Below are positions 27,777-47,222 of a stretch of DNA of 64,000 nucleotides, piece by piece. Numbering within the stretch: the stretch's first letter is position 1; the number at the start of each line of letters is the position of its first letter. Location: assembly GCF_018402035.1 (NCBI RefSeq), contig NZ_JAGYJN010000001.1:746327-810326 (forward strand), read 5' to 3'. The stretch is from Roseicyclus sp. (lineage in GTDB: Bacteria > Pseudomonadota > Alphaproteobacteria > Rhodobacterales > Rhodobacteraceae). The notes beneath the pieces were generated by a model. That model worked only from the letters and a program-made list of their open reading frames with translations. It made no database searches and was not told where the DNA came from. Both the position numbers and the translations under genes were made by a program.

Positions 27777-27813
27777 GGCGAGTTGGCGGAGAGGTTACGC
27801 AGCGGATTGCAAA
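27777..27813 (+). pseudogene. 5' half of a tRNA-Cys(GCA) gene, severed after the anticodon loop
   Basis: GGCGAGT-TG-GCGG-AGAGGTT-ACGC-A-GCGGA-TTGCAAA reads as acceptor, D arm, 5' anticodon stem and loop. No 3' anticodon stem or T arm follows. GC content drops sharply from 27814 onward. Confidence 0.7.
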
Positions 27814-27893
27814 AACAGTTGCACTCGCCCAAACCTCCCATTTAATTACTTAAAAACAAAGACTTAAGAGAAATTCACCCTTCAAAATCAGCT

Positions 27894-27916
27894 TACACAG
27901 TTGATACACAGTTTTC
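27894..27916 (+). repeat. 23-nt motif TACACAGTTGATACACAGTTTTC, copy 1 (putative integrase arm-type sites)
   Basis: Identical to 29495-29517. It contains two ACACAGTT octamers 11 bp apart and starts 81 nt after the anticodon loop of the tRNA-Cys fragment. Confidence 0.7.
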
Positions 27917-28211: not shown

Positions 28212-28490
28212 TCACTGATAAACCTCATCATGCGAACCAACGTTGATCAAAATAATGTCGTTGTCCTGGATCATAAGTTCCAATGTAATGCGATAGCTCA
28301 TATTGATTGAGACAGAACTTAGTCCACTCAGTTTACCAGTCAGCTTATGCAGTCTTAGCGATGGATGCTGAATGTCGAGCTCCATCAACTGAAGGGTCTT
28401 GAGATACTGATCTTTAAGGCGTGGGTGCTTCTTGATCCATTTGGCAGCCTTTTTGTTATAGCTGTCTGTAAAGACCAGCCTGTAACTCAT
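28212..28490 (-). CDS. type II toxin, RelE/ParE superfamily
   Basis: 92 aa (MSYRLVFTDSYNKKAAKWIKKHP...LRLHKLTGKLSGLSSVSINMSYRITLE). An ATGA overlap joins it to the upstream antitoxin. Confidence 0.7.
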   Translation of the reverse strand: MSYRLVFTDSYNKKAAKWIKKHPRLKDQYLKTLQLMELDIQHPSLRLHKLTGKLSGLSSVSINMSYRITLELMIQDNDIILINVGSHDEVYQ

Positions 28491-28744
28491 TTCATCGTCT
28501 CAAGGCGTTTCAAGTGATCTGCAGGACTCTCTGTGATAAACCGCCCCTCTGCCAGATCTTTACGTGTCTCATGAATTGCGGCTTCTAGCTCACATGTACG
28601 CAAGTGAGAGTACTGCTCAAAGCTCATAACCACATACTTGTCTTTACCACGTACGGAGACAATCGCTTCAGTGCTGTCCGCTAAGGCTTGCTCGATCGCT
28701 GTAACGCCTCGGGTCTTCAATTCATTTGCCGGTATGTTAGGCAT
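28487..28744 (-). CDS. type II antitoxin, Phd/YefM-like
   Basis: ATG at 28744 gives MPNIPANELKTRGVTAIEQALADSTEAIVSVRGKDKYVVMSFEQYSHL. The ORF-track start at 28873 is probably too long. Confidence 0.65.
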   Translation of the reverse strand: MPNIPANELKTRGVTAIEQALADSTEAIVSVRGKDKYVVMSFEQYSHLRTCELEAAIHETRKDLAEGRFITESPADHLKRLETMK

Positions 28745-28907
28745 AGCGCACTTCCAATCGTGTTGATTATAGTACTGTCTAACATACTGAGCGCTATTGG
28801 GCAATGTTGTATTGGCCCTTAGAACATGGATTAGATGTCTTGCGTTAAAATATGGGCTTACGTGCAAAAACAACGTAACGCTCTGTAATCATGCATGTTT
28901 CAAAAAC

Positions 28908-29038
28908 TTATCCACAGGTTCGCTAATCAAACACTGTGTTTGCAACAGTACTGTTTGCCCACTTTGCTCAAACAGTACTGTTTGGTCACTTGTAAATAAA
29001 TGCCATGTTAACATGCAGTGTTTGCCTTCACATCAATA
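28908..29038 (+). repeat. 131-bp palindrome-dense module, copy 1
   Basis: 128/131 identical to 38870-39000 by hand alignment. Contains AACAGTACTGTT at 28944-28955 and 28971-28982, CAAACACTGTGTTTG at 28928-28942 and CATGTTAACATG at 29004-29015. Confidence 0.85.
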
Positions 29039-29376: not shown

Positions 29377-29450
29377 GGCGGGTTGGTAGAGTGGTTATGC
29401 AGCGGATTGCAAATCCGTGTACACCGGTTCGATTCCGGTACCCGCCTCCA
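29377..29450 (+). tRNA. tRNA-Cys (anticodon GCA), intact, encoded CCA
   Basis: The GGCGGGT acceptor pairs with ACCCGCC. The anticodon loop is TTGCAAA and the T arm is ACCGG-TTCGATT-CCGGT, with TCCA at the end. It differs from the 27777 fragment at 5 positions in the first 23 nt and is identical over GCAGCGGATTGCAAA. Confidence 0.9.
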
Positions 29451-29494
29451 ACAAAATCAAGCACTTAGCCACTTTTTTCCTCACAATTTCCTCA

Positions 29495-29517
29495 TACACA
29501 GTTGATACACAGTTTTC
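29495..29517 (+). repeat. 23-nt motif TACACAGTTGATACACAGTTTTC, copy 2
   Basis: Identical to 27894-27916 and starts 82 nt after the anticodon loop of the intact tRNA-Cys. Further ACACAG-type words follow: CTGTGT at 29517-29522 and ACACAGTG at 29549-29556. Confidence 0.7.
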
Positions 29518-29695: not shown

Positions 29696-31225
29696 ATGAA
29701 GGAGACCAACAGAACCATTAAAGTCAGCGAACACATTCGACTGGATACAAGACCTGGCAGTGCAAAGTGGCAAGCACGGGTTAAACTGGCTGATGGCTCT
29801 TGGCATAGATTTTCAACCAAGACAGAAAGCATAGAACGCGCCACAGAAGTCGCGATGAAGTTTTTCTACACATCCGAAGATCGTCTCAAAAATAATCTGC
29901 CACAAAGCACGCGCAAGTTTCGTCGTGTTGCAGAATTTGCACGGGACAGGATGCAAGAAGAACTGCGTTCTGGCAGCGGACACATCGTCTACAAAGACTA
30001 CATCACTGCTCTTGATAAGTATCTCATTCCGTTCTTCGGTTCATATGATGTAGCCAATATCAATGCCAAAGCTCTGGTGGACTTTGGCAAGTGGCGCACA
30101 GAACAGCTGGGACGCAAGGCACATCATAGTACCATCAACACGCATAACACGGCATTAAATCGAGTGCTGGATGAAGCGGAACAACGTGGTTGGATCACAC
30201 ATGCCATTCGGCCCAAGCCCATCAATGACGGTATCAAAACAGAAAGCCGTGGCAGTTTTACCAAAGAAGAATACAAAACCATCTATGAGGCCCTGAGATC
30301 GTTTCATAAGGCGTCTGACAATCCCAATACTCAGGCCACGCGTGAAGTGCTCAGGAACTACGTGCTGGTGCTGGCCAACACTGGGATGCGGCATGGGACT
30401 GAGGCTCTGAACCTCAAATGGAAAAACCTGCTATGGATCAAAGAAGAGGATCAGACCTATCTTGGGCTGTTTGTGGCAGGAAAGACGGGTCAGCGGCCAC
30501 TAATTGCCAGAGATCGCGCTATAAGGCCCCTAGAGCGTCAATTGGCGCTCAATCCCAATCTCAGAGGCAAAACCCTGGATGAAGTGATTGAAAGCAAATG
30601 CGAAGATTATGTGTTTGTCACTCGCTATGGCGAACGGGCAGCGCGGCCCAACCTCTCCCGCAATTTTGAGACGCTGCTTAAATCTCTCAAAATTGTATAT
30701 GGCGCCGATGGTAAAAAGCGAACGCTTTACAGCTGGCGGCATTTCTACGCCACTTTGGATCTGCAGCGCGGCATCAGCACCCACGCCCTCAGCAGGCAGA
30801 TGGGCAACAGCACGGGCGTGTTGGACCGTTTTTACTCAAAGCTGTCGCCGTTCATGAACCCAGGTCTGCACTCAGGTCGTGATCAGCAAGAGCAGCGTAA
30901 TGCAGCAAAGACCGTCACAGAGCCGCAGCAAGCGACAGCAAAAGCCGAGGGCGACCGAGAGCTGCAAGAAGCCCCAGTTGCCAATCTAACAGTGTCTGCA
31001 CAAGCCGCAGCGGCCGTAGATCAAACTGCTGCTCCTAAAACATCAGCGCATGAGAAAGCGTTTGATCTGTTTGATGCTGGCAAGCTCTCAGAAAAAGCCC
31101 TGCTGATTGCTGTTGGGGCGGAGCGCAGTGGGTTTGAACTTGCAGAGGACCTGCGATTGCGCACGCTCACAGCTTTTGAAGACGGACGCCTGTCAGAGGA
31201 TGCAATGATAAAACTGCTGAGTTAA
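29696..31225 (+). CDS. tyrosine-type site-specific integrase with a long C-terminal extension
   Basis: 509 aa with catalytic-domain signatures NTGMRHGTEAL (Arg), SWRHFYAT (H-x-x-R region) and GVLDRFYSKL (Tyr). About 125 further residues follow, rich in Ala/Gln/Glu. The gene is adjacent to tRNA-Cys. Confidence 0.85.
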   Translation: MKETNRTIKVSEHIRLDTRPGSAKWQARVKLADGSWHRFSTKTESIERATEVAMKFFYTSEDRLKNNLPQSTRKFRRVAEFARDRMQEELRSGSGHIVYKDYITALDKYLIPFFGSYDVANINAKALVDFGKWRTEQLGRKAHHSTINTHNTALNRVLDEAEQRGWITHAIRPKPINDGIKTESRGSFTKEEYKTIYEALRSFHKASDNPNTQATREVLRNYVLVLANTGMRHGTEALNLKWKNLLWIKEEDQTYLGLFVAGKTGQRPLIARDRAIRPLERQLALNPNLRGKTLDEVIESKCEDYVFVTRYGERAARPNLSRNFETLLKSLKIVYGADGKKRTLYSWRHFYATLDLQRGISTHALSRQMGNSTGVLDRFYSKLSPFMNPGLHSGRDQQEQRNAAKTVTEPQQATAKAEGDRELQEAPVANLTVSAQAAAAVDQTAAPKTSAHEKAFDLFDAGKLSEKALLIAVGAERSGFELAEDLRLRTLTAFEDGRLSEDAMIKLLS

Positions 31226-31788
31226 AGCAGCTCCACCGCCTCTTTCATCTGATCCGCATTCACATCGATATACCGTTGTGTAGTCGAGATATGAGAATGC
31301 CCCGCAAGTGCAGCAAGCAAGCGCACACCTACTCCCTTGTTTGCCAATCTGGTAATATAGGTTCTGCGTCCCGAATGGCTTGAAGCATCTTTGAAGCCAC
31401 AGTTTTTCAAAATGTCCAAAAACAGCTGACACATTGTGTTTGGCGAGAAGTGACCGCCTTTCTGACTTTCAAACAAAGGACGCTCTAAATTGCTAAAGTT
31501 TTTATCCAATCCGTAGTCCTCTAATGCTTTTGCGAGACGTTTGTTGATAAACACGCTGCGCCGCTGCCCACCCTTGGTTTGGTCGCTCTCAAGCGTAAAC
31601 TGTTCACGTACACGACCTTCGGCGTCAAACACGTCGCCCAACTTGAGCGCTGCAATTTCTTTAGCGCGTAATCCCGCAAAAAAGCTTACCATGAAAATCG
31701 CCGTATCACGATTAGCGTGCCGTCTTGTGCGACAGTAGTGCAGCACCTTGCGAAACTGGGCTTCATTCAGTGTCTGTGCATGTCTCAT
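31222..31788 (-). CDS. small tyrosine recombinase (catalytic domain only, 188 aa)
   Basis: FFAGLRAKEIAAL (Arg), HSGRRTYITRL (H-x-x-R) and LAGHSHISTTQRYIDV (His, Tyr). It is convergent with the integrase and the two stop codons share TTAA at 31222-31225. Confidence 0.8.
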   Translation of the reverse strand: MRHAQTLNEAQFRKVLHYCRTRRHANRDTAIFMVSFFAGLRAKEIAALKLGDVFDAEGRVREQFTLESDQTKGGQRRSVFINKRLAKALEDYGLDKNFSNLERPLFESQKGGHFSPNTMCQLFLDILKNCGFKDASSHSGRRTYITRLANKGVGVRLLAALAGHSHISTTQRYIDVNADQMKEAVELL

Positions 31789-32122
31789 GGTATAAAATCC
31801 TTAAATCTCATCTTATCGCTATAAACACTATAAAGTCTGAGGTTTGGGTTGGGCGACCGGTTTCTGCCCCTACGATTACTGTATTTTAAAAGGCCAATTC
31901 GGCCAAAATCTCATGTTTTGTTAGGATTAAATGCAAATCGTGAGATTTGATTTTGACGCAACTTAAGGCGCCGCTGCATACATCAATAAAATCAATGAGT
32001 TATCCGATAATCTCATGAAATGTATATAACATGAGGTTTTGAACGCTGTACTTCGGCTCAAACGGCACATCTGTTTGTAAGCTCAAAGAACTAGAGTTCA
32101 GTGCACGTTGGTAGGCATAAAA

Positions 32123-32151
32123 TTGACACGACCTGTTCAACAGCATATTAT
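32123..32151 (+). promoter_or_regulatory. sigma70-like promoter for parDE
   Basis: TTGACA (32123-32128), a 17-nt spacer and TATTAT (32146-32151), 23 nt before the GGAGGG Shine-Dalgarno and ATG 32174. Confidence 0.5.
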
Positions 32152-32173
32152 AATCTCATATTTGGAGGGTACT

Positions 32174-32419
32174 ATGAGCCGCGCAACATCTATCATACTG
32201 GGTGAACACTTTGACACGCTGATTGCTCAACAGATGCAATCAGGGCGCTACAGCACCGCAAGCGAAGTCGTGCGGGATGCACTGCGTCTCTTTGAACAAC
32301 AACAAGTTGCGACGCAAAGATTGAGCGATGCAGTAGATAAAGGGTTCGCAAGCGGATTTACGGACGAAATTGATTGGAACGCTCTGGAAAAACGTGCTGA
32401 AAATACAAAAGCACGATGA
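32174..32419 (+). CDS. parD: type II antitoxin ParD
   Basis: MSRATSIILGEHFDTLIAQQMQSGRYSTASEVVRDALRLFEQQ is the characteristic ParD RHH N-terminus. ATG at 32174 has a GGAGGG Shine-Dalgarno. Confidence 0.85.
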   Translation: MSRATSIILGEHFDTLIAQQMQSGRYSTASEVVRDALRLFEQQQVATQRLSDAVDKGFASGFTDEIDWNALEKRAENTKAR

Positions 32420-32715
32420 AGCACGTCCAATACTCGAAAGAGTCCCTAAAGGATCTGGAAAATATAACTGATTACACCGCTCAAATGTGGGGCGCCAATC
32501 AGGCAAAGGTGTATCTCAAAGACATTCGGGACAAAGTACATCAAATTGCTAATGGCGAAGCAATTGTGCAGGTTCTGCACATTCCAAGGCCTGGAATGCT
32601 GAAGGTGCGTGTAAACCGACATATCGTTATTTTCGAGTCAACGGATGCTACAGTGAGAATAATCAGGATTTTACATGACTCGATGGATATTCCTCAGCAT
32701 CTAACGAGAAACTGA
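32416..32715 (+). CDS. parE: type II toxin ParE
   Basis: 99 aa, with an ATGA overlap to parD and a C-terminal RIIRILHDSMD. Confidence 0.8.
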   Translation: MKHVQYSKESLKDLENITDYTAQMWGANQAKVYLKDIRDKVHQIANGEAIVQVLHIPRPGMLKVRVNRHIVIFESTDATVRIIRILHDSMDIPQHLTRN

Positions 32716-34360: not shown

Positions 34361-34594
34361 ATGGCTCAATTATCACAACGTTCAACCATTTATTTTGACC
34401 CGAACATGCACAAAGCACTTAGACTCAAGGCTGCGCAAGAGAACCGTTCTGTATCGGATATCGTTAATGAAGCTGTGAGCTTGCTTGCTGCAGAAGATGC
34501 AGAAGATATCGCTGAATATGATGCACGCAAAAATGAGCCGTCAATGGACTATTCGAGCTTTGTAAGTGAACTGAAGAATGACGGAATTATATAG
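34361..34594 (+). CDS. type II antitoxin, ribbon-helix-helix (CopG/RelB-like)
   Basis: 77 aa (STIYFDPNMHKALRLKAAQENRSVSDIVNEAV), overlapping the downstream toxin by 17 nt. Confidence 0.7.
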   Translation: MAQLSQRSTIYFDPNMHKALRLKAAQENRSVSDIVNEAVSLLAAEDAEDIAEYDARKNEPSMDYSSFVSELKNDGII

Positions 34595-34838
34595 CATCCG
34601 TTTCAAGTCGTCGGTCAAGAAAGACTTGCGATCCATCCCAAAGCAAGATGTGCTACGAATATTAAATGCTCTAGAGCATCTTGCTCAAGATCCGCGCCCG
34701 ATAAATTCAAAACCATTAACAGGGCGTGACGGATGGAGAATTCGCGTGGGACAATATCGCGCCATCTATACCATCAATGAGCAGGAAATCATTATTGAGG
34801 TCGTAAAGATAGGGCATCGCAAAAACGTTTATAGATAA
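34578..34838 (+). CDS. type II toxin, RelE/StbE family
   Basis: 86 aa (IRFKSSVKKDLRSIPKQDVLRILNALEHLAQDPRP...GWRIRVGQYRAIYTINEQEIIIEVVKIGHRKNVY). Confidence 0.8.
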   Translation: MTELYSIRFKSSVKKDLRSIPKQDVLRILNALEHLAQDPRPINSKPLTGRDGWRIRVGQYRAIYTINEQEIIIEVVKIGHRKNVYR

Positions 34839-34841: not shown

Positions 34842-35576
34842 TTATTCCAATTCCTCTACAAACAGATCACCATAACGCTTTTTAAATAAGCGCAGCGCTG
34901 GATCAAATGATCCACTGAGTTCACAAAGCGTAAAGACATGTGCATCTGCAATACTCTTGTTTTGCAGCGCATTGTCGAGAATACTGGGCAGTCGTTTTTG
35001 GATATTTTCCATTTGCTCATGGGTATAATGCTGTTGCGCGAGAAACCTCGCAAACTTGAGCCATGGCATAAGAGGGTCTAGGTCTTGTACAATTTGCGCA
35101 TAAGAATGTCGCAACATCGTATCTGTCATGCCATCAACAGTGAAATTATCAAATCCCGTTGTTAAAAAACAGACTAAGAGACCATCGTATACCATCTCAA
35201 ATTCTAGGTCTGAATGTCCTGTGAGCGCGTAATCAACTTGGTCCATGAGACTGCTTGAGAACTGCGCACGCAAGATGTTCTCAATCTGACTAGGTAGATG
35301 AATGCGCAGCCCAACACGCGACACATAATGGTCATATTCTTTGTGCTTTAAATATGCGGCTTCAATAGGAACGAGATCGCAATCAAATTGAAAATGCTGA
35401 GGCGTTGGTGCGACTTCATAGCCTAGAATTTGGCTCCCGCCTTCATTAGCTAAAGATGCAATCTGATTAGGATCTGTGTGGATACCAATTTCAGTATCAC
35501 ACAGACCTGCTAAGCATTGCACGATTTCTACAATGCAAGCCTCAAAAGCCTTTCTGTCTGAATTATGTTCCATCAC
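34842..35576 (-). CDS. hypothetical protein, gene 4 of the AAA+ operon (244 aa)
   Basis: Long ORF in 40%-GC DNA. Its ATG overlaps the upstream stop (ATGA at 35573-35576). I recognised no motif. Confidence 0.7.
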   Translation of the reverse strand: MMEHNSDRKAFEACIVEIVQCLAGLCDTEIGIHTDPNQIASLANEGGSQILGYEVAPTPQHFQFDCDLVPIEAAYLKHKEYDHYVSRVGLRIHLPSQIENILRAQFSSSLMDQVDYALTGHSDLEFEMVYDGLLVCFLTTGFDNFTVDGMTDTMLRHSYAQIVQDLDPLMPWLKFARFLAQQHYTHEQMENIQKRLPSILDNALQNKSIADAHVFTLCELSGSFDPALRLFKKRYGDLFVEELE

Positions 35577-36304
35577 TCGTTCAGCTTTGCTTCACAAAGA
35601 CACCGAATAATATCGCGCTTTACCGGATACTGAAACTTGAAGAGCTTTTTGTAGAACGCCTGCGCTTCCCCATCCTTACGCCTGCCATACTCTGGTTGCT
35701 TTGCATATCTGAGCTCGCTTTTATACAGCTTCAGAAACTCTGCATGATATTCGTCGCGCAACTCATGCAGTAGGCTATAGTCTGGCTTTAGTTCTAAAAG
35801 TTGATCAATAAAGCACAGGTTTTGAGCCCATTCATGATAGCGGTTAGTAATACGATCGGGCAATGCGAGCATCAGCATGAGTGCACGTTTGCTACCCGTA
35901 TCTTGCACTCCTTTTGGCAAAGTAAGTTTTTCATGTGGAAGTACGGGTGTGAAGCCGGCTTCAATTTGGCGCAATTTTACATGAATTAAATTGCTCTTTT
36001 GATTGCTGGGGAATTTATACCCCCAGAAGCGATTGTAATGTCTTCGCACGGCTGGGTGTCCAGGGGAAGGATTTCTAGAGTATCCGTCTAATAGGAAGTT
36101 GTGATGGAGACTCGACTCGAGAGCTAGATTTTCCTGCTCATTTTTGTGCATTAATAAACCGCGCACGCGATCAAAAACGTCAGTGTGTCGTAGTGCGCGA
36201 ACCTTTACATCAAATCCACACTGATCGAGAAACCATAAGAAATCAGTTTGTTCAGGCGACATCTCCAGCTCGTAGAGACCTTTTTCGTCAAATAAATCTT
36301 TCAT
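35573..36304 (-). CDS. hypothetical protein, gene 3 of the AAA+ operon (243 aa)
   Basis: The ATG at 36304..36302 overlaps the stop of the ATPase gene (TGATG). The ORF-track start at 36364 is probably too long. No recognisable motif. Confidence 0.7.
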   Translation of the reverse strand: MKDLFDEKGLYELEMSPEQTDFLWFLDQCGFDVKVRALRHTDVFDRVRGLLMHKNEQENLALESSLHHNFLLDGYSRNPSPGHPAVRRHYNRFWGYKFPSNQKSNLIHVKLRQIEAGFTPVLPHEKLTLPKGVQDTGSKRALMLMLALPDRITNRYHEWAQNLCFIDQLLELKPDYSLLHELRDEYHAEFLKLYKSELRYAKQPEYGRRKDGEAQAFYKKLFKFQYPVKRDIIRCLCEAKLNE

Positions 36305-36984
36305 CAGAGAGCCCTCCTTGAAGAATGTGATGTGATTGGCGCCGGTGACTGTGCGGTGCGCCATCCGATCACGGTCTCCTCCAACAAATCGATCAAATCT
36401 CGAGCACTGCCTTCAAAACTTTGGAGCATGAGTGCAACGTCTTGAGTGGATGGCGACATGCCTTCGTCTTCTAGAATAGCTTTTGCACGAGGCACCCAGT
36501 CTTGGTTTGTTGGTGGGGTAAGATCTACAACGCGAAACCTGCTTAGGATGGCACCGAGTATCCGCGATTTGTGATTGGTCGTAGCAATGAAGCGGATGTA
36601 AGAGCGCTTTGCATCCATGAAGTCACGAAACAAGGGTTGCTGCGTGCGAAGATCTAGCGTGTCGATTTCGTTAATAACAACAAGAGCTTTGTCCGGGTTT
36701 CCAAAGAGCTGGAAATTAGCCTCTGCCATAATTTGTGACTGCAGGTCTTTTCCTGAACTTCCCCCATTAAATTCCCAGGTCATGTTCTGGATGTTTTTGG
36801 TTTTAAAGTAAGTCTGTGCAATCACACGCGCGGCTTCGGTTTTTCCAGCGCCTGGCGGTCCCACGAGTAATAGGGGCTTTGAGGGTATAGCAGTACAGTA
36901 TTGCTTTATGATGCCTGCGTTCAGCGGATCAGCGATAACGAGATCGTTAAATGCGGATGGAAGGTGTTTAAGATCAAAGGACAT
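36304..36984 (-). CDS. small AAA+ ATPase, clamp-loader (RFC/DnaX)-like
   Basis: Walker A LLLVGPPGAGKTEA, Walker B ALVVINEIDTL, sensor-1 region FIATTNH, an SRC-like arginine-finger motif ILSRFRVVDL, and GSARDLIDLL resembling the DnaX/RFC sensor-2 helix. ATG at 36984 is preceded by GGAGGC. Only about 226 aa, so the usual collar domain is missing. Confidence 0.75.
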   Translation of the reverse strand: MSFDLKHLPSAFNDLVIADPLNAGIIKQYCTAIPSKPLLLVGPPGAGKTEAARVIAQTYFKTKNIQNMTWEFNGGSSGKDLQSQIMAEANFQLFGNPDKALVVINEIDTLDLRTQQPLFRDFMDAKRSYIRFIATTNHKSRILGAILSRFRVVDLTPPTNQDWVPRAKAILEDEGMSPSTQDVALMLQSFEGSARDLIDLLEETVIGWRTAQSPAPITSHSSRRAL

Positions 36985-37043
36985 GTTTGCCTCCATGAGA
37001 GAAAGGGAAAAGGGCAACTCGAAAGCCGCCCTTTCGTTTCGCC

Positions 37044-37862
37044 TTAGCCGTAATGCGGGGTCACAGCCCCGTTTGTGCGGAGTGCGCCACCGTTAACAGT
37101 TGCATTTGGCATCGAGCTCACAGTGATCATTTTGGAGGTAAATTCGCGGACATCGCGTGCACGCCGTTCTGCAAGATCACCGGCATCAACCTGCGCTTTG
37201 CTATCCTGAGCGCGCTGATCCAGATCTTTGCCGGAAGATACTAGGACTGCGTCAATGACACCTGCTTCGTTGCAACCGTAGACGATTGTACCTGTGCCAT
37301 CATCGTGACAGCGCACAAGAGCAACCGCATAATCTTCTTCATAGTCTGTATTTGGTTGAATGAAGGTAGGAAGCTCAAATGTGCTGACCCCGACCTGGAC
37401 ATCTGCCAGGCCATCAAGCGCTAGCTTTTTATAATCATCCTTGCTCATTATGCTGGCTTTTTGTGCCTTAGGAACTCGGCGCACCTCTTCAATGCCGCCA
37501 CATTCTTGCACATAGCTGGTGAAGCTTTGATCTGGACCTTTCATGTCGTGGGCGATCGCAATCACGCGGGCGTAAGAGTCCTCACGCCGACCTACTTTAC
37601 CAAAGACATAGCGAATGACCTTCAGTGCTAAGCTGGTATTTGCCTGAGTTTTTAGATCCAAATCTGTAAGCAGTGAGGCAAAGGCACGACGCTTGCCTAC
37701 TTCGGCCTTCAACTCAGAATAAAGTGCGTAGATTTGCTCCAAGATTGCATAGAGCTCAGTTGTGGCGGCACGCATTGTGCCTTCTTCCCAGACCACGCGC
37801 GCGGCGGACATTTGCTCGAGGCGTGTATGGATGTCGTGTTTGATTTGAGATTGAACTGACAT
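37044..37862 (-). CDS. hypothetical protein, gene 1 of the AAA+ operon (272 aa)
   Basis: Long ORF with a helical N-terminal half and a mixed C-terminal half. No recognisable motif. Confidence 0.7.
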   Translation of the reverse strand: MSVQSQIKHDIHTRLEQMSAARVVWEEGTMRAATTELYAILEQIYALYSELKAEVGKRRAFASLLTDLDLKTQANTSLALKVIRYVFGKVGRREDSYARVIAIAHDMKGPDQSFTSYVQECGGIEEVRRVPKAQKASIMSKDDYKKLALDGLADVQVGVSTFELPTFIQPNTDYEEDYAVALVRCHDDGTGTIVYGCNEAGVIDAVLVSSGKDLDQRAQDSKAQVDAGDLAERRARDVREFTSKMITVSSMPNATVNGGALRTNGAVTPHYG

Positions 37863-38072
37863 TGGTTTTTCCTTTCAGAACATTTGATTGGAACCCCTGA
37901 AAACACAGGGGTGGTTGCAAACTCTGATGCTGGATGACGCTTCATGACACAAAGTTAAGGTGAACAGTCATTTGCGGGCATGTAGGCTCAAACAAGCACA
38001 GAATGAGACTCACGCTATCGACTTTGAACCTTGAAAAACTAAAACCATATACATCATGAAGGAGATGGTTTT

Positions 38073-38840
38073 ATGGTCTACGACGCGACCATTGAGCTGC
38101 AATCGCCACTGAGCTTTATGACAGCTCCGCCAAATATAGACGATTTAAAAGGCACGAGATTCCGTGAGCCCAGAAATTCGCCCTATAAAGATGCACCTGC
38201 CTTCATGGCCTCGCTTTATTACTGGTGGTGGGCTTTCTTACGGCGCAACACCGCATACAAACGCACATGCCGCCAAAGTGGCAATGGAAGACTGGGGTGG
38301 CTTTATAATGATTTTGGGAATGTTTTTGGCAATGACTTCTTATCTTGGTGGCGAAGCCATCAATTGCTCTTTGCAGAACAGAATAAAGTAATGCCAGAAG
38401 AAGCAGGCATTGGCCTGAACTACTGGCTTGATCCTCGCAAACCCTTCAATCAGATCCACGAAGAGACTAAAGCGCTGCACTTACGCGCACATTCACTTTT
38501 AAAAAATAATGAATCTACGCGTGCTTCCTCAGCACGTTACCCAATCTATAAAAATGTCTCTTCACACACACTGCACAAAACACTGACACTCTGGGATCTG
38601 CACCTGTATTATCCCGATATGTCAAAATACGACTTAGGTGTAAAAGCGGGGCTTAAGCCTAATCTTATGCCTGAGACCAAATATGGTGAAAGGCGGACCA
38701 AACAGGCGATGCAGGTCAAAGCACACAATCACCGTGCGCGCACAAGCATTGCTAATCAGACCAGTCGATATCTACGCACAGCGCGGCAGTATATTGAGAA
38801 TGTCGGCAAGGGTGAGTTTCCAAAATCTGTGGGCCGTTAA
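38073..38840 (+). CDS. hypothetical protein with a FLRRN-type motif (possible DUF6499-like regulator domain)
   Basis: 255 aa. ASLYYWWWAFLRRNTAYKR resembles the W..FLRRNP.Y signature I associate with DUF6499/FseA-type ICE activators. This is recollection only. AGGAGA Shine-Dalgarno upstream. Confidence 0.55.
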   Translation: MVYDATIELQSPLSFMTAPPNIDDLKGTRFREPRNSPYKDAPAFMASLYYWWWAFLRRNTAYKRTCRQSGNGRLGWLYNDFGNVFGNDFLSWWRSHQLLFAEQNKVMPEEAGIGLNYWLDPRKPFNQIHEETKALHLRAHSLLKNNESTRASSARYPIYKNVSSHTLHKTLTLWDLHLYYPDMSKYDLGVKAGLKPNLMPETKYGERRTKQAMQVKAHNHRARTSIANQTSRYLRTARQYIENVGKGEFPKSVGR

Positions 38841-38869: not shown

Positions 38870-39000
38870 TTATCCACAGGTTCGCTAATCAAACACTGTG
38901 TTTGCAACAGTACTGTTTGCCCATTTTGCTCAAACAGTACTGTTGGGTCACTTGTAAATAAATGCCATGTTAACATGCAGTGTTTGCCTACACATCAATA
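38870..39000 (+). repeat. 131-bp palindrome-dense module, copy 2
   Basis: 128/131 identical to 28908-29038. AACAGTACTGTT occurs at 38906-38917 and 38933-38944. Confidence 0.85.
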
Positions 39001-39106: not shown

Positions 39107-39433
39107 ATGTCACGACATATTTTAGAAACAGCGCGCCGCGAACTTATCTCTGCAGGACTTGTGCAGCATTCCACGGAGTTTTGCCGCGCTTGGCTTGGGA
39201 AAAGTGAATGTTACCTGCGAACTTTGCGCATTCAAAACATTGACCCAAGCGCAGACGCACTTTCAACCTTTGCGAGTAAATTACGCTATTATGCAGAACG
39301 TCTTGAGCAGACTGGAGAAAGCAACCATCTAGCCCTGGCACGCTTGCTAAGAAAACATCAAAAATTAAGCGAGGGCGCCCTAGACCAAAAAGCGCGTCAT
39401 AAGTGGATGCAGCCCGAGAGGATGGGTCTATGA
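39107..39433 (+). CDS. hypothetical small protein (108 aa)
   Basis: The ORF is preceded by GAGGAA. No motif recognised. It lies 107 bp downstream of repeat copy 2. Confidence 0.5.
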   Translation: MSRHILETARRELISAGLVQHSTEFCRAWLGKSECYLRTLRIQNIDPSADALSTFASKLRYYAERLEQTGESNHLALARLLRKHQKLSEGALDQKARHKWMQPERMGL

Positions 39434-39553: not shown

Positions 39554-39919
39554 ATGGATGATCGTGAAGAAATGCGCCGCCTCATTGACATGATCGAAAA
39601 GTCTGCAGGATCCAATACGATTGAGCAGGCAGTCGATGATCTAAAGACTTTTGCGAATACGGCCAGCTTCTTGGCAAACAAGCTCGATAGCAGGCTGAAG
39701 GCAGGCGAGGTGAAGAAGAAAAAGCCTGCAAAGTCTGGCAAGGGGATAGGGCTATCGAAACCAGCGCCACCTCCCATTCCAAAGTCCCGTAACACACCTG
39801 AACCGCAGGACTCTGTGAGTGGTATGCCTCAAGCTACCAGCACCAGTATCTCACAAGCCGACTATGACAAGGTGAAGCCCATGCGCCCAATGGGAGCGTT
39901 GAGCGCAAACGAGAGTTGA
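39554..39919 (+). CDS. hypothetical small protein with Lys/Pro-rich centre (121 aa)
   Basis: The ORF is preceded by AGGAG. The helical N-terminus is followed by KKKKPAKSGKG...PPPIPK. Confidence 0.45.
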   Translation: MDDREEMRRLIDMIEKSAGSNTIEQAVDDLKTFANTASFLANKLDSRLKAGEVKKKKPAKSGKGIGLSKPAPPPIPKSRNTPEPQDSVSGMPQATSTSISQADYDKVKPMRPMGALSANES

Positions 39920-40049: not shown

Positions 40050-41117
40050 TTATTCATCGCCCGAAGGCTCATCTGATGGGTCATCGTTGTCAGCATCTAC
40101 ATCGTCTGAGCCTGTATTTGGATCCCGTTCTTCTGCGCTAACGGCTTCGTCCATGCTCACGGTATTCACCACAAGCTCAAAGGTATCGAGAATATCAGGA
40201 TGGTTCTGTGTGAGGTAGTTTTTCACGGTTGGTGTGGAGATCAGTTTGCTTAAATACCCGCGCGCGACGACTAAATTAAGGAGGTCTGAGCCGTAATTGG
40301 CCTCTGCATCTTTGTACTTGGTTTGCACCTGGCTCATTTCTTTTTCCAGTTTAACAATCTTTTCTAACGGATCTCCTTGAGGAATGTCTGGTTTGGCGGG
40401 CGCCGTGTCTGTGCGCTGTTCTGGCGGTGTTGCTTTTAACAGGGCCTCTGCGTGGGGTCCTGTTATTTTATCTGCCGCGATCATCAACTCGACGGCCTCC
40501 ACTTGGCGCGCAGCTTTCATTTTGCGCAGGAAACGTGTGACCTCTGGGTTGAACTGTTGGTCTTGTAAGAGCTCAACGGCCTGGGGGCACACACCATGCA
40601 ACAAGTTCACACGAGTGTTAATGGCTGAGAGATTGACATTAAACGCGCGTGCTAAGCGCTCTTTGCTGACACCTTTGTCGATTGCGCGACGCAACATATA
40701 GTGCTCCTGCACCGTAGACAGTCTATTTATGCGATGGTTGTAGGTGTAGGTCTCAAAATCTTTGGCGATAAGACAAGGGGCCTGATCTTCGCCCAATTCC
40801 TTGAGTGCGAGCACGCGTAGGTTCCCATCGAGTAGGAGGAAGGTTTCGTTTTGGTCATCTGTTGGGATTATAGAAAGCGGCTCAATCAATCCAATTTCTT
40901 TGATGGAAGAGAGGATCTGTTTGAATTTGCGCGTGGTCATCACACCGTCAGGTACTTTCTTGCTTGGCATAAGATGTTCGATAGGGATTTGATGGGTTTC
41001 TAAATTAAATCCAAGCGTGAGATTGAGAGGCGCCTTTGGAAAGCCGAATGCGTCCTCCTCTGGCAGTTCAGTTGCTGCTCCCGGGAAAATTTCTTGAATA
41101 GACATTGGTTCGTTCAT
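40050..41117 (-). CDS. ParB/RepB-like N-terminal-domain protein with acidic C-terminal tail
   Basis: IGLIEPLSIIP and LLLDGNLRVLALKELG form a ParB/Srx-type Arg motif, followed by HTH-like GVSKERLARAFNVNLSAINTRV. The C-terminal tail is DDVDADNDDPSDEPSGDE. Confidence 0.7.
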   Translation of the reverse strand: MNEPMSIQEIFPGAATELPEEDAFGFPKAPLNLTLGFNLETHQIPIEHLMPSKKVPDGVMTTRKFKQILSSIKEIGLIEPLSIIPTDDQNETFLLLDGNLRVLALKELGEDQAPCLIAKDFETYTYNHRINRLSTVQEHYMLRRAIDKGVSKERLARAFNVNLSAINTRVNLLHGVCPQAVELLQDQQFNPEVTRFLRKMKAARQVEAVELMIAADKITGPHAEALLKATPPEQRTDTAPAKPDIPQGDPLEKIVKLEKEMSQVQTKYKDAEANYGSDLLNLVVARGYLSKLISTPTVKNYLTQNHPDILDTFELVVNTVSMDEAVSAEERDPNTGSDDVDADNDDPSDEPSGDE

Positions 41118-42013
41118 GATACACCTCCGTTCAGTGTGTTAAGTTCAATCCGTTCTGCGAGATATTGAGGCAGTGTTTCTAAACCTTCTGCACGCAGCAG
41201 CGTCACAAAATTTGTGTCTGTAAAAAGTGTTCTGAGGCCTTGCTCTACGAGCAGCAGTTTTTGCTGGGCATGTTCAGCCTTCAAAACCATCTTGTGCTGC
41301 CGCTCTACTTCGCGCTGGTATGTCTTCACGAGCGAATGCGCAGAGTTTGGTAGTTTGGGTCGATTGTTAGCCTTTGGACCTTGGTCACGGCGTTTGGCGA
41401 GAAGCTGTTTTGCTTCATAAAGTTGTGTGGTTTTAAGCTCACCCGATTGATACGCTTCTTCCAGCATGTCGCCTAAATCATCGTCATCGGTTTTGGCGCG
41501 TGCGATTTGGATGGCGGCACTCAGTGGAAGGGTGCCATGTTGAACGGCTTCAATTAAACGCTCTTCGCCCTTTTCCAGGAGAAACACGATGTCGCGCACA
41601 TATTTTTGCGACAAGCCCGTCTTTGCAACAATGTCGTCGATGCCAGTGTTTCTTGTAAGCAGCAGTTCAATGTCTGCGAGGATCTCCAGTGGTCGGTGCC
41701 CCTTGCGCGCAATGTTTTCTGCTAAGCTCATGATGAATGCATCTTCATCTGAGACATCCACAATCAGCGCTGGAATATGAGTTTCTCCTAATATGCGAAA
41801 CGCATTTAGACGCCCTTCACCGCACACAAGCAGATACTTGGGTTCACTGTCTAAACCCTCACGCTCGGTGACTGTAATTGGTTTTTTAAGACCAATATCT
41901 TGGATGTTTTCGACAATCTCTTCAAAGACTTTGGCATTGCGGTCTCGGGAATTCAGGACCTCAATGCGCTCTATTGGAATGAGCGTCACCCGCTCTGGTG
42001 TGTCAGTGTTCAT
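41114..42013 (-). CDS. ParB/RepB-like N-terminal-domain protein
   Basis: IPIERIEVLNSRDRN, IGLKKPITV, LLVCGEGRLNAFRILG (GxxRxxA) and SLAENIAR motifs. A 4-nt overlap joins it to the downstream ParB-like gene. Confidence 0.75.
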   Translation of the reverse strand: MNTDTPERVTLIPIERIEVLNSRDRNAKVFEEIVENIQDIGLKKPITVTEREGLDSEPKYLLVCGEGRLNAFRILGETHIPALIVDVSDEDAFIMSLAENIARKGHRPLEILADIELLLTRNTGIDDIVAKTGLSQKYVRDIVFLLEKGEERLIEAVQHGTLPLSAAIQIARAKTDDDDLGDMLEEAYQSGELKTTQLYEAKQLLAKRRDQGPKANNRPKLPNSAHSLVKTYQREVERQHKMVLKAEHAQQKLLLVEQGLRTLFTDTNFVTLLRAEGLETLPQYLAERIELNTLNGGVS

Positions 42014-42067
42014 AGCAACTCCTATTGGAAATTTGGGTTAGGACATTTTGTGTATGATGATTTCGCT

Positions 42068-43624
42068 TCATGACGCCTGCCTCCAGATGTTGACCCGGCA
42101 GGCCATGCGATAGAAAAACTGCAGATCATCAAATCGAAAAGCTTCGAATTGAGTGGCGCTTCGTGCATCAATGGCGAGGTGGCTTCTCGGCAAATCCAAC
42201 CAAGGCAACAGGTAATAATCGAGCGCGCCTTCATTGTAGTGATCTAGCCGCACCACCAGTGAGAGATCAGCCTTGAAGCGCTCAGGATCAAAGCGCACAC
42301 GCCAACGAAACCTTCCGTCGCCTGATGTTTGGCACCGTGACAGGACCAAACTGACTGCAAGCTCGTTGTTGATATTCAAAAGCCCTGTGTCTGGCGCCTG
42401 CGTGACAGCCCCGCCTATGGTGTTAATCTGCGCAAGCGTGTCTTGCACTATCTCAGGATACATTGCCCGAAGGCGCGCATTTATTTCGGCGCGTTCGTGA
42501 TCAAAATTCGTCTGATAGCCAATTAAAGCATAGGCCCGTCTTAAAGATCCAAAGCGCGTGCGGTACACATTTGCCGAAGGTAGCGCGTCGCTTTGATCAA
42601 TAAGCACACCACTAATTTGACCATGATCCGCATAAAGACGTCGCAAGTGCTCCAATAGTTCTTCATCCGACATTTTGGCTGAGCGTGCGGTGATGATCTC
42701 TTGGGCCGTCATAAACATTTCGATAGGGACGATTGCTTCAAAGGCGCCTTCTTTGCGGATCCACATTTCTGGCGGGTTGTCCACGTGATGTCTTTTAAGT
42801 TTGAAACTTCGTCGATTGAAAACATTGTTGCCGATGTATTTTTCATTTGTGAGAACTGTCCGCACAGATGTTGTCGTCCAGGGACGCTCCAGATCTGTCG
42901 CGATCCCATGTTCATTCAGACGATCGGCGATTTCTCGAAAGCTCATGTCTTCGTCAATAAGCCAGCAAAACATGCGATTGACCCAAGCAATTTCTTCCTC
43001 GGGTCCCGGCATGAGGATTACGCGATCTGTTTGAAGGCTCTTGTGCTCTCCAGCCTTTAATTCGCCTTTGACCTCCCCGCGTTCATTAACCAAAACACGG
43101 CGCAATCCAAACCCAGCAGGCCCGCCTTGTCGAAACCCCAATTCAATCAGGCGACATTGACCGGCGAAAACTTTTGCAGACAGCTCCCGACTGTACTCAC
43201 CAGCCATGGCGCGTTTGACGCCTTTGACGATTGTGGAAACTGGGGAGCCGTCATTTTCAAACTGCTCTGCACAATAGGCCACCTGGATACCAGCGCGACG
43301 GCAGATATATTCATAATAGGCACTTTCATCGGCATCTTGAAACCGCCCCCAGCGACTGACGTCATAGACAAGAATGACGTTAAAATCTGCAATGCCTGTT
43401 TCTACATCCGAAATAAGCCGTTGAAGTGCAGCCCGCCCACCAATGCTCAAGCCACTTTTGCCCTCGTCGGCATAGGTTTTGATAATCTCAATTCCACGCT
43501 TGTCTGCGTATTCTTGGATTTTATCCGCTTGGTTTTGTGTGGAGTATTGCTGGTGCTCAGTGCTCATCCGTACGTATTGGGCAGCTTTGAAAGCACCTTT
43601 TATATGCTGGGCTTCAGTATTCAT
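42068..43624 (-). CDS. large serine recombinase
   Basis: The resolvase catalytic domain (AAQYVRMSTEHQQYSTQNQ, with the Ser nucleophile, then YADEGKSG and VYDVSRWGR) is followed by a recombinase domain and long C-terminal region; 518 aa. Confidence 0.85.
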   Translation of the reverse strand: MNTEAQHIKGAFKAAQYVRMSTEHQQYSTQNQADKIQEYADKRGIEIIKTYADEGKSGLSIGGRAALQRLISDVETGIADFNVILVYDVSRWGRFQDADESAYYEYICRRAGIQVAYCAEQFENDGSPVSTIVKGVKRAMAGEYSRELSAKVFAGQCRLIELGFRQGGPAGFGLRRVLVNERGEVKGELKAGEHKSLQTDRVILMPGPEEEIAWVNRMFCWLIDEDMSFREIADRLNEHGIATDLERPWTTTSVRTVLTNEKYIGNNVFNRRSFKLKRHHVDNPPEMWIRKEGAFEAIVPIEMFMTAQEIITARSAKMSDEELLEHLRRLYADHGQISGVLIDQSDALPSANVYRTRFGSLRRAYALIGYQTNFDHERAEINARLRAMYPEIVQDTLAQINTIGGAVTQAPDTGLLNINNELAVSLVLSRCQTSGDGRFRWRVRFDPERFKADLSLVVRLDHYNEGALDYYLLPWLDLPRSHLAIDARSATQFEAFRFDDLQFFYRMACRVNIWRQAS

Positions 43625-43943
43625 GGCCCAGCAGAATTGTTAAAACACGTGCCGTGATATTTGGATCACTCGGATCTAATGAATGCATTTGAAAATCGAG
43701 ATCGTAATACTCGATTTTCCAAAAGATGGTTTCGCCGCAAAATTCAAAGCTGCCGAAATCATGCTCACCATAAGGGTCATTGCGCTCTGTGAAAGCATCA
43801 TAAGCTTGCACACGCGCGACAATGGCCTGCGTTTGATAAAGTGCCTGAACTCCCGGTGTCATGTAAACGCGACACCCTGAGAAAGACTTGCGCGCCGCAT
43901 CATTAAGCGCTGCTATTTTTGTTGGATCATGTGCCGTCAGCAT
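43614..43943 (-). CDS. DUF3768-like protein
   Basis: 109 aa. TERNDPYGEHDFGSFEFCGETIFWKIEYYD matches my memory of the DUF3768 signature common on plasmids and ICEs. Confidence 0.6.
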   Translation of the reverse strand: MLTAHDPTKIAALNDAARKSFSGCRVYMTPGVQALYQTQAIVARVQAYDAFTERNDPYGEHDFGSFEFCGETIFWKIEYYDLDFQMHSLDPSDPNITARVLTILLGHEY

Positions 43944-44382
43944 GTTGCGCCTCCGACGGATCTTTTCTGCGTTGTGCTAGTGTAGAGAGTGCGGTGTCTA
44001 ACTCGCCTCCCTCAACGGCTTTGGCGAATAGATCTAGCACCGCAGCAACGTCATCTAGGCTATGAACAATGACAGCGTTGTTATCTGCATCAAGCGGGAC
44101 AACGCGTGCGCCATATTTGAGTTGGACAACCCAGCCTTGCCCATCTTGAAAAAACCAAGGGCGCACAGCGTGTGTTTTCTCTACGCGCTGCCGGTTACCA
44201 TTTGTATCCCGTGCCCAGCCTGGCTTTGTAACCCTATGCTCTTGCCCTTTTTGTGCGGCTGCTAAAACAAGTTTTTGCTGCTCAAGTGCTGTTAGGGTTT
44301 TACTACGCCGTTCTTCAACAGGATCCCGATTGGGCTGCGTGCGTCGATAGGACGTCAATGTAAGTTTAGACAGTGGTGCCAT
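43927..44382 (-). CDS. hypothetical protein (151 aa), first gene of the serine-recombinase operon
   Basis: The ORF overlaps the next gene by 17 nt. No motif recognised. Confidence 0.5.
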   Translation of the reverse strand: MAPLSKLTLTSYRRTQPNRDPVEERRSKTLTALEQQKLVLAAAQKGQEHRVTKPGWARDTNGNRQRVEKTHAVRPWFFQDGQGWVVQLKYGARVVPLDADNNAVIVHSLDDVAAVLDLFAKAVEGGELDTALSTLAQRRKDPSEAQHADGT

Positions 44383-44487: not shown

Positions 44488-44985
44488 TTATTTAGCGAGT
44501 TGCAATTGATCAGCACTGACCTGCATACGTGTTTTTTGTCCCATGAAATCCATAAGGACCCAAATACGCTGCTCAGGATCAATTGTATCCACCGTTGCAA
44601 TGAAATTGGCAAAAGGTCCGGTGAGCATTTCTACACTGTCTCCCTCGTTCAGACTTTTGGGTGGGAGCAATGCACCAGATGCATCGCATCTGAGCATAAG
44701 ACCAGAAATCAGCTGTAGAGGAAGCGGCTTTGGTTTGCCCTCAAAGCTCACAAGCTTTGATACCCCAATCGTGCTATTTATCGAGCGCCAAGGGGCCAAT
44801 TCAGAGTTTATGCTGACAAACATGTATCCTGGGAAAAGAGGTTTTAGATCACTCACAAAGCGGGAGGCTTTTCTGCGGGTGATTTTCTGCATGGGTAAAA
44901 ACGTTTCAAACCCTTGCCGTTGCAAGTTGCGCTCCGCCAGGCGATGGCTGTTTGGCTTGAACTGTATCAAATACCACTGATTCAT
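44488..44985 (-). CDS. NusG-family transcription antiterminator paralogue (RfaH-like)
   Basis: MNQWYLIQFKPNSHRLAERNLQRQGFETFLPM (NGN domain) and PLFPGYMFV, plus a C-terminal KOW-like GDSVEMLTGPFANFIATV; 165 aa. Confidence 0.8.
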   Translation of the reverse strand: MNQWYLIQFKPNSHRLAERNLQRQGFETFLPMQKITRRKASRFVSDLKPLFPGYMFVSINSELAPWRSINSTIGVSKLVSFEGKPKPLPLQLISGLMLRCDASGALLPPKSLNEGDSVEMLTGPFANFIATVDTIDPEQRIWVLMDFMGQKTRMQVSADQLQLAK

Positions 44986-47103: not shown

Positions 47104-47173
47104 GGCGGCCGATAATGCAAGGTTACGGGTAGCTTGAAGTTTAAAATGCAGGTGATGGTGAGTGGCGTGGCAA

Positions 47174-47202
47174 TTGACGAAAGGTACGCTTTACCGTACG
47201 TT
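47174..47202 (+). promoter_or_regulatory. candidate promoter/operator of yefM-yoeB
   Basis: TTGACG (47174-47179), a 17-nt spacer and TACGTT (47197-47202). Two GTAC cores at 47184 and 47196 lie 12 bp apart. This resembles the paired GTAC-core operator described for E. coli yefM-yoeB, as I recall it. Confidence 0.4.
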
Positions 47203-47222
47203 AAGGCAAAAGGGGTACTGCC

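Follow-up and report, generated by a model that had tools for sequence, protein, structure and literature searches.

What does a short adenosine triphosphatase (ATPase) of the clamp-loader type do on a bacterial island, in the company of partners that have no recognizable domain? The question is raised by a locus of Roseicyclus sp., in a 64,000-nucleotide (nt) stretch of contig NZ_JAGYJN010000001.1 (positions 746,327 to 810,326; here called the window), where four closely packed genes, termed g1 to g4, occupy positions 34842 to 37862 of the minus strand. A preliminary description of this sequence had treated the four genes as one conserved system. The comparisons reported here divide them instead: g1 and g2, the latter encoding the ATPase, are fixed backbone genes of a family of integrative islands, whereas g3 and g4 are clade restricted and individually dispensable. 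We tentatively favor a role of the operon in processing the DNA of the island itself.

Organization of the operon

All four of the minus-strand open reading frames (ORFs) attributed to this region are present. According to the ORF list, g1 (37862-37044, with an ATG start) encodes 272 amino acids (aa), g2 (36984-36304) encodes 226 aa, and g3 (36304-35573) encodes 243 aa; g4 extends to 34842 from either an ATG at 35573 (243 aa) or a GTG at 35576 (244 aa). The corresponding database entries (WP_213684195 to WP_213684199) carry the annotations “hypothetical protein” and “AAA family ATPase.” Full-length homologues of all four proteins are found in metagenomes at 40 to 98% identity, and thus these are not chance ORFs; the clusters formed at 90% identity contain 210 to 646 member sequences. 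A blastn search with the 3-kb region returned no match among plasmids and phages.

The translational coupling proposed for these genes is consistent with their overlaps. At the g2/g3 junction the reported TGATG is confirmed, with the A at 36304 common to both genes and AAGGAGGG just before it. The g3/g4 overlap had been read as ATGA at 35573-35576, but the bases at 35576-35573 are GTGA, and the overlap is therefore GTGA if g4 starts at the GTG or TGATG if it starts at the ATG. Judged by these overlaps, g3 and g4 are coupled under either g4 start, and g1 to g4 are probably cotranscribed. A scan for sigma-70 promoters showed no enrichment relative to shuffled sequences.

The 59-nt spacer between g1 and g2 does contain the hairpin and the Shine-Dalgarno sequence that had been noted in it. 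The hairpin (37035-37008, minus strand) is GC rich, with 12 bp and a T-rich tail, and GGAGG lies ahead of g2 at 36994-36990 on the same strand. An alternative ORF for g2 that begins with a TTG at 37017 opens inside the hairpin; this longer start was rejected, as all homologues begin at the M(S/T/K)F equivalent of 36984.

A clamp-loader-type ATPase without a collar

The identification of g2 as a short AAA+ ATPase of the clamp-loader type is borne out by matches to PF00004 in Pfam (E = 7e-11), to the clamp loader family phrog_168 in PHROGs (2e-25, with positions 5 to 210 of the 314 profile positions matched), and to the RFC small subunit, at a length of 226 aa against approximately 320 to 340 aa. 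The RFC small subunit model NF001679 of NCBIfam was matched at 5e-17, with 61.8 bits against a cutoff of 303, and the DnaX model TIGR02397 with 44 bits against a cutoff of 250; g2 thus scores below the curated thresholds for clamp-loader families, at roughly one-fifth of the cutoffs. Among PDB sequences, residues 6 to 203 of g2 aligned with residues 18 to 214 of the 327 residues of the archaeal RFCS (1iqp; 2e-15), and human RFC5 was aligned as well.

These alignments span RFC domains I and II alone and stop where domain II ends. No g2 residues extend past domain II in the RFCS and phrog_168 alignments, and the collar (domain III) is hence absent. The motifs quoted for g2 in the preliminary description (GPPGAGKT, VVINEID, ILSRFRVV, and GSARDLIDLL) are all found in its translation. 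Across 24 aligned members of the g2 family, whose lengths range from 209 to 260 aa among the relatives, the Walker A lysine, the Walker B glutamate, the sensor 1 asparagine, the SRC-type arginine, and the sensor 2 arginine are invariant. The first acidic residue of Walker B is represented by asparagine in the clade of the window protein and by aspartate or glutamate in the other clades. Because the catalytic, sensor, and arginine-finger residues are all retained, g2 is very probably an active, oligomer-dependent ATPase. By homology, it is classed as an AAA+ ATPase of the RFC/clamp-loader clade that consists of the ATPase module without a collar, and it descends from clamp-loader ATPases and probably works like them.

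The statement that no clamp, polymerase, or primase is nearby holds for the whole window, and neither the window island nor the genes called in related loci yielded a clamp or polymerase domain.

A backbone module of one island family

We collected 116 related loci and labeled the ORFs of 114 of them, together with the window, with iteratively built hidden Markov models (HMMs). In at least 66 of the 77 loci with enough downstream sequence, g2 directly follows g1, and approximately 6 of the 11 loci without a g2 call at this position represent ORF-calling artifacts. A homologue of p255, a gene for a 255-aa protein, lies divergently upstream of g1 in 80 of the 89 loci with enough flanking sequence. 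The genes for a DUF6626 protein, a 121-aa protein, DUF6641, DUF3768, a 188-aa tyrosine recombinase (int188), and an integrase of approximately 410 to 520 aa recur in a constant order, and the islands are often located beside tRNA-Cys, tRNA-Phe, or tRNA-Met. The same core is found in branches in which g1 is only about 25 to 35% identical to the window g1, and g1-g2 was not seen outside this one backbone in approximately 115 loci. Because the backbone genes and adjacent tRNAs recur even at low g1 identity, g1-g2 is best described, from its synteny, as a module of the backbone that characterizes a single family of integrative islands in chromosomes.

The g1 homologues from a word-seeded search were at first assigned to genomes of Rhodobacterales, among them Planktotalea, Nereida, Lentibacter, Marivivens, HTCC2083, HIMB11, Roseovarius, and Marivita. 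Most of the hosts identified are Rhodobacterales from the sea, with the window copy in Roseicyclus sp., and the cultured hosts with relatives include Nereida ignava CECT 5292, Planktotalea frisia SH6-1, Planktotalea arctica IMCC9565, Marivivens geojensis FJ12, HTCC2083, and HIMB11. Searches by tblastn with g1 and three of its distant relatives against 72,556 plasmids, and with g1 against 50,697 phages, gave no match, nor did a scan of IMG/VR; the module is thus not mobile cargo of another kind.

In the window, the DUF6626 protein (39107-39433, plus strand; 108 aa; PF20331, 1e-27) is encoded downstream of p255, as it is in most related loci, and the 121-aa backbone protein (39554-39919, plus strand) has counterparts of 48 to 73% identity in many of them. 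DUF6641 (43927-44382, minus strand) and DUF3768 (43614-43943, minus strand) form a backbone pair by synteny. This pair lies downstream of the g2 slot in most relatives and on the opposite side of the island in the window. A block at 40050-43624, which contains two RepB/ParB-like genes and a gene for a large serine recombinase (42068-43624), is present among relatives in the window, L032, and L034 only, and in these three the DUF6641-DUF3768 pair adjoins this block and not the downstream side of g2. The position of the pair there suggests that the serine recombinase brought about an insertion or an inversion. A tRNA-Met gene was observed within the island region at L026:13530-13606 and L027:12527-12602, in both cases between DUF6641 and int188, and at L029:13042-13118, where it lies beyond int188 and beside the integrase. 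A full-text literature search for DUF3768, DUF6626, and DUF6641 retrieved no paper.

The g1 family and the spacer hairpin

The first gene of the operon belongs to a large family. A word-seeded search found 92 clusters of g1 at 90% identity, and a full HMM search of the 1.84 billion representatives of the 50% identity library found 1078 clusters at E <= 1e-3, of which 663 were retained at E <= 1e-10. Nearly all members are 240 to 290 aa long and align from end to end. Neither g1 nor g3 or g4 has a significant match in Pfam, NCBIfam, PHROGs, PADLOC, or the PDB sequences, profile searches included, which agrees with the earlier remark that these three partners lack a recognizable domain; Pfam likewise detected no domain in 52 sampled members of the g1 family. 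In a comparison of profiles, g1, g2, g3, g4, and p255 proved to be mutually unrelated.

Whether the protein of 272 aa resembles a clamp or PCNA, a question put forward in the preliminary description, is answered in the negative by its predicted structure. The AlphaFold2 model of g1 has a predicted local distance difference test (pLDDT) score of 68.7, with the N-terminal 130 residues confident, and is mostly alpha-helical, with one beta-hairpin and a disordered tail; Foldseek found no PDB neighbor for it. A sliding clamp was accordingly rejected for g1, and a degenerate AAA+ (delta-like) subunit was rejected at an hhalign probability of 0.3%. The protein is acidic overall (isoelectric point [pI], 5.6), and its residues 71 to 135 are basic.

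Most g1-g2 spacers contain a GC-rich hairpin, and the relatives carry these hairpins at the same position although their spacer sequences are unrelated. Among 73 distinct spacers, the mean energy of the best hairpin was −17.0 kcal/mol, compared with −7.6 kcal/mol for dinucleotide shuffles; the median z score was −4.3, and 82% of the spacers had a z score below −2. The simplest reading is that the hairpin acts as a leaky terminator or a 3′ stabilizer, which would raise the amount of g1 over those of g2 and the proteins encoded behind it.

A variable slot behind g2

The position occupied by g3 and g4 in the window is filled differently elsewhere in the family. The window proteins differ in charge, g3 being basic (pI 8.7) and g4 strongly acidic (pI 4.8). 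The g3 family comprises 16 clusters at 90% identity, with 52 to 98% identity to the window protein, and the g4 family comprises 30 clusters at 90% identity, with 40 to 96% identity. The AlphaFold2 model of g4 (pLDDT, 75; predicted template modeling score, 0.75) is an alpha+beta fold in which an antiparallel sheet is accompanied by a helix at the N terminus and a helical bundle at the C terminus. None of its Foldseek matches was significant, the best E values being 0.09 in PDB and 0.04 in BFVD with template modeling scores of <0.3; matches to RdgC-like proteins recur among these insignificant ones. Two possible relationships were considered: g3 and g4, which are both 243 aa long, were rejected as paralogues (hhalign probability, 0.9%), and a link of g3 to slot family U7 (236 to 244 aa), with which it has an N-terminal E..QLL.....CG pattern in common, is not supported (hhalign probability, 0.6%).

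All contexts of g3 or g4 that we examined are located right after g2, and the g1 of the respective islands is 77 to 100% identical to the window g1. The two genes had been expected to co-occur with g1 and g2 as a unit, but they are found together, singly, as pseudogenes, or not at all. Both are present in the window and in L039; g3 is intact beside g4 fragments of 62 to 133 aa in L032 (10729-11463) and in L034 to L036; g4 occurs without g3 in L037/38; and g3 runs off the contig end in L007. The fragments beside an intact g3 are evidence that g4 is undergoing loss at these loci, as read from the sequences. The obligate co-occurrence that characterizes type II toxin-antitoxin pairs is likewise not observed for g3 and g4, as L032, L034 to L036, and L037/38 deviate from it.

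Sister islands, in which g1 is 76 to 78% identical to that of the window, have other slot content or none. For example, a distant g4 homologue, family U14, occupies the slot in L011, L013, and L015 (hmmsearch E value of 7e-6 in L015), an unrelated 243-aa protein of family U7 occupies that of L012, and the slot is empty in L014 and L018, in which int188 comes next after g2. Within a single g1 clade of 76 to 100% identity, g3 and g4 are found in four combinations, next to slots with U14, with U7, or without a gene. More distant islands contain the sets U4-U2-U1 (16 loci), DUF3768-U3-U13-U6, and U17-U18-U19. In six unrelated types of cassette, the first slot gene starts −3 to +5 nt from the g2 stop codon. 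The content of the slot is thus variable and its coupling to the ATPase gene constant.

p255 and the divergent control region

On the other side of g1, the control region (37863-38072) separates the operon from the divergent p255 (38073-38840, plus strand), which encodes a very basic (pI 9.9), tryptophan-rich protein. An inverted repeat, AAAACCAT (38065-38072) and ATGGTTTT (38041-38048), abuts the p255 start; its arms are separated by a 16-nt spacer, with the Shine-Dalgarno sequence in the loop. In an alignment with relatives, GACTCCAT and ATGGAGTC take the places of AAAACCAT and ATGGTTTT, both arms having changed together. This repeat in the p255 leader may represent a translational hairpin or an operator.

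The p255 motif YYWWWAFLRRN is similar to “AWEFLRRN,” the defining motif of domain DUF6499 in FseA, an activator of the excision and transfer of integrative and conjugative elements (ICEs) (PMC10359603). The window protein had no significant match in Pfam or PDB, and 1 of 13 p255 relatives had a weak match to PF20109 (E = 0.019). It is possible that p255 is an FseA/RovC-like regulator, and we regard this similarity as a lead only.

Integration module, cargo, and island edges

The description of the surroundings as a tRNA-linked island is well founded: a recombinase gene lies beside a tRNA gene, and the G+C content is atypical, at 0.44 to 0.50 between 28 and 46 kb compared with approximately 0.62 in the upstream host DNA (1 to 28 kb). 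The tRNA-Cys gene (29377-29450) adjoins the gene for a 509-aa tyrosine integrase (int509; 29696-31225, plus strand), on which int188 (31222-31788, minus strand) converges with an overlap of 4 nt. The int188 protein consists of the catalytic domain only, and int188 is the best conserved gene of the islands, with 61 to 89% identity even where g1 is at about 30%; a second subunit of the recombinase and a directionality factor are conceivable roles for it. The cargo of the island includes ParDE (32108-32715) and a pair formed by an RHH antitoxin and a ParE/RelE toxin (34361-34838, plus strand), which converges on g4 and travels with g3-g4 in L039 to L041; the large serine recombinase described above completes the features that had been listed for the region. 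No separate excisionase was recognized in the island, and Rfam detected the tRNA alone.

The 5′ half of tRNA-Cys is duplicated (37 nt, 86% identity) 1.6 kb upstream of the intact gene, and a perfect 22-mer, ACACAGTTGATACACAGTTTTC, is also repeated between the two regions (27777-27916 and 29377-29517). From its sequence, this partial repeat resembles a scar left by an integration that was either earlier or in tandem. The interval from the partial copy to the intact gene contains a YafQ/Phd-like toxin-antitoxin pair (28212-28873). A search of the window to the right did not find the tRNA 3′ end repeated, and the right boundary of the island is undefined there.

A direct repeat of 131 nt with 98% identity was observed at 28908-29038, just left of tRNA-Cys, and at 38870-39000, between p255 and the DUF6626 gene. 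Each copy contains two perfect palindromes, AACAGTACTGTT (at 28944, 28971, 38906, and 38933), of which 0.05 matches are expected by chance. The repeat may constitute an operator array for a regulator of the island or may be the remnant of a second island copy.

At the right edge of the island there is a gene for a NusG/RfaH-like paralogue (44488-44985), followed by one for a MarR-type regulator. The region from 45347 to 64000 contains this regulator and a long sugar-nucleotide/O-antigen-type cluster, with a G+C content of about 0.37 at 52 to 64 kb, and the same NusG-MarR-phosphomannomutase junction was seen in L032. Either the island inserts beside a NusG/O-antigen-type locus or the cluster belongs to a larger composite island.

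Function of the operon

Several clues link these islands to replication. The nearest relatives of g2 are replication clamp loaders. Furthermore, the slot family U1 (196 to 290 aa), which lies in the slot after g2 in L002, L003, L022, L024, L025, L029, L030, L048 to L050, L052, L053, L055, L087, L089, and L104 (16 loci), has the invariant motifs FGTLKF, ENFH(V/I)HF, and NY.T.EYW, whose order and spacing, as read by eye, are those of the three motifs of HUH rolling-circle Rep proteins or relaxases. Three members matched PF23343 (REP_ORF2-G2P) below the threshold (E of about 0.03), and the U1 profile had no match among PDB sequences. Tentatively, U1 may be assigned to the HUH endonucleases that resemble rolling-circle Rep proteins. 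In one distant island, an 899-aa primase-like protein (L046:11016-13715) is encoded after g1 in the place of the AAA+ protein g2. It matches phrog_2467 (2e-39) and the DNA primase family phrog_9765 (1e-13), its N-terminal part being similar to phage DNA primase families and its C-terminal part containing a P-loop. The L046 locus adjoins genes for an MmeI-type restriction enzyme and a DEAD helicase.

Of the two functions originally suggested for the operon, island maintenance or replication hijacking is the one that we favor, because g1-g2 has backbone status and the HUH-Rep-like and primase-like genes point the same way; a new stand-alone defense system fits much less well. In a form that we hold with slightly less than even confidence, the operon would be the DNA-processing module of the island itself, in which a collarless clamp-loader-like ATPase with exchangeable partners would serve replication and possibly the mobilization of the excised circle. 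From the gene structure, the homology of g2, the synteny, the variability of the slot, and the conserved hairpin, we infer the following sequence of steps, including any interaction among the proteins. Activation of the operon would proceed from the divergent promoter region, with the basic p255 perhaps as the activator. The hairpin behind g1 would probably terminate part of the transcripts, leaving g1 in excess over g2 and the downstream genes. Then g1 would mark the island DNA and assemble g2, which would spend ATP at a nick or a primer-template junction, where it might recruit, load, or remodel replication proteins of the host such as the beta clamp. Proteins from the slot (g3 and g4 in the window) would be exchangeable subunits with the role of initiators or adaptors.

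A more ambitious version of this proposal is rather doubtful in our estimation. It holds that g1-g2 and its exchangeable coupled partners form an unrecognized clamp-loader-derived machine of mobile elements, which would either load or capture the sliding clamp of the host at the excised island, so that the island could replicate although it encodes no polymerase, or shut down a competing phage or element by stripping or blocking clamps. Together with p255 and DUF6626, this machine would be the hallmark of a new family of marine integrative elements, and an abundant one.

A number of observations weigh against a replication role. The collar holds real clamp loaders together as pentamers (five subunits), and an AAA+ subunit without one may be no clamp loader at all. 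No DNA-binding domain is detectable in g1, which is acidic overall although its residues 71 to 135 are basic. The window island has no recognized HUH-like protein, primase, or replication origin; the HUH call for U1 comes from eye-read motifs and sub-threshold Pfam matches, and a primase-like protein replaces g2 at a single locus. Literature searches found nothing on any of these proteins. In addition, a conserved ATPase followed by variable coupled genes is the layout of several modular defense systems too, and some distant members of the family are located among restriction and defense genes, two of them next to GmrSD, an NACHT-type ATPase, or an MmeI-type enzyme.

The latter two observations would also be expected if the operon were an ATPase-driven defense or exclusion module of the island, with g1-g2 as sensor and motor and the slot proteins (g3, g4, U7, U14, and the HUH-like nuclease) as interchangeable effectors directed at phages or competing elements. 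The toxin-antitoxin pairs that flank the slot in the window and in L039 to L041 are in line with such a role, as is the strong acidity of g4, a property of some DNA mimics. However, PADLOC-DB 2.0 returned matches for g2 that are confined to the P-loop (IetA, TRIP13, and others) and none for g1, g3, or g4, as the preliminary description had anticipated in expecting no PADLOC call and no fit to a named defense system. Nuclease, protease, TIR, SIR2, HEPN, and membrane domains were not found in g1, g3, or g4, and the models of g1 and g4 are without a fold match. Islands with an empty slot exist (L014 and L018), and the bond between g1-g2 and one backbone in approximately 115 loci fits a life-cycle gene and not shuffled cargo. 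We consider a defense function unlikely. The divergent arrangement of p255 and g1, which is the most deeply conserved feature of the islands, could instead point to a module for regulation or excision control, in which p255 would activate the g1 operon and g1-g2 would remodel the complex of int509 or int188 with DNA, or a repressor, thereby setting the direction or frequency of excision. The WWAFLRRN motif of p255, which is similar to the DUF6499 signature of FseA, the inverted repeat with changes in both arms, and the lack of a separately recognized excisionase all suit this idea. Nevertheless, the similarity of p255 to FseA extends to no significant Pfam or PDB match and to a weak PF20109 match in a single relative, and the Rep-like and primase-like neighbors are left unexplained. 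Nor is any RFC-type AAA+ protein known to serve as a recombination directionality factor, and we judge regulation or excision control to be quite unlikely.

A relaxosome-type mobilization module appears very unlikely. The island would in that case hitch a ride on a conjugative element or a gene transfer agent, with the HUH protein as the relaxase in some islands and g1-g2 in accessory DNA processing. The islands are small and have no transfer or packaging genes of their own, and HUH/Rep-type proteins are reported to act as relaxases in integrative mobilizable elements (IMEs) (PMC7563843). On the other hand, the window island and many of its relatives have no HUH-like gene, neither an oriT nor a coupling protein nor a match to a MOB family was seen, and the nearest g2 relatives are replication proteins.

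Significance and comparison with known systems

The operon should not be filed as a four-gene defense system. Its first gene belongs to a family of more than 1000 clusters at 50% identity that lacks both a Pfam model and a solved structure and that the searchable literature does not mention, and this family marks a whole family of integrative islands. In the metagenomes covered by the protein collection, several of them marine, the window variant is found hundreds of times. A stripped clamp-loader ATPase with swappable partners would be an unusual use of a core replication fold, and the function of g2 would show how minimal islands without a polymerase, a recognized initiator, or transfer genes persist and spread. 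The significance would be greater if the ATPase does manipulate the sliding clamp of the host. Literature searches retrieved no paper that ties clamp-loader-like ATPases to islands or defense and nothing relevant on roseobacter islands.

Among characterized proteins, g2 most resembles the RFC small subunit, DnaX, and phage gp44, with which it has AAA+ domains I and II, Walker A, the Walker B glutamate, sensor 1, the SRC-type finger, and sensor 2 in common and which are its best matches in PHROGs, NCBIfam, and PDB. It differs from them in the missing collar domain III and the corresponding length (226 versus approximately 320 to 340 aa), in its score (62 versus 303 bits), and in the asparagine that stands for the first acidic residue of Walker B in its clade. 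It also differs in context, as no clamp, polymerase, or other loader subunits are encoded nearby and its partner g1 is helical and neither AAA+- nor clamp-like. The clamp-loader-like ATPase core is common to g2 and to proteins of the RarA/MgsA and RuvB types, and automatic labels of the Joint Genome Institute (JGI) designate some members of the g2 cluster as “RarA” or “DNA polymerase III delta prime.” However, g2 lacks the C-terminal tetramerization domain of RarA and reaches only 20 to 24 bits with PRK13341 in NCBIfam, and it is part of an island operon and not of a housekeeping locus. As in IetAS and Lamassu, the conserved ATPase gene is followed by variable downstream partners, but the IetA models of PADLOC match only about 24 residues around the P-loop of g2, effector domains of a known kind are absent, and the g1-g2 pair is strictly confined to a single backbone. 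p255 is similar to the DUF6499-DUF2285 proteins FseA and RovC in length (255 versus 266 aa), in its occurrence on mobile elements of Proteobacteria, and in its N-terminal motif, and it differs from them in having no significant profile match, with a resemblance at the motif level alone.

At the level of the whole element, the window island agrees with tRNA-integrating islands and IMEs (“hitchers”) in the integrase beside a tRNA, the deviant G+C content, the toxin-antitoxin cargo, and the combination of a conserved backbone with a variable region, and some of its relatives also have a Rep-like HUH gene. In contrast, its backbone genes (g1, g2, p255, DUF6626, DUF6641, DUF3768, and int188) match no described island family that we found. 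What is known is thus the class of tRNA-integrating islands, and what is new is a family of them whose core operon combines an unusual, minimal ATPase of the RFC-like type with a large family of orphan proteins.

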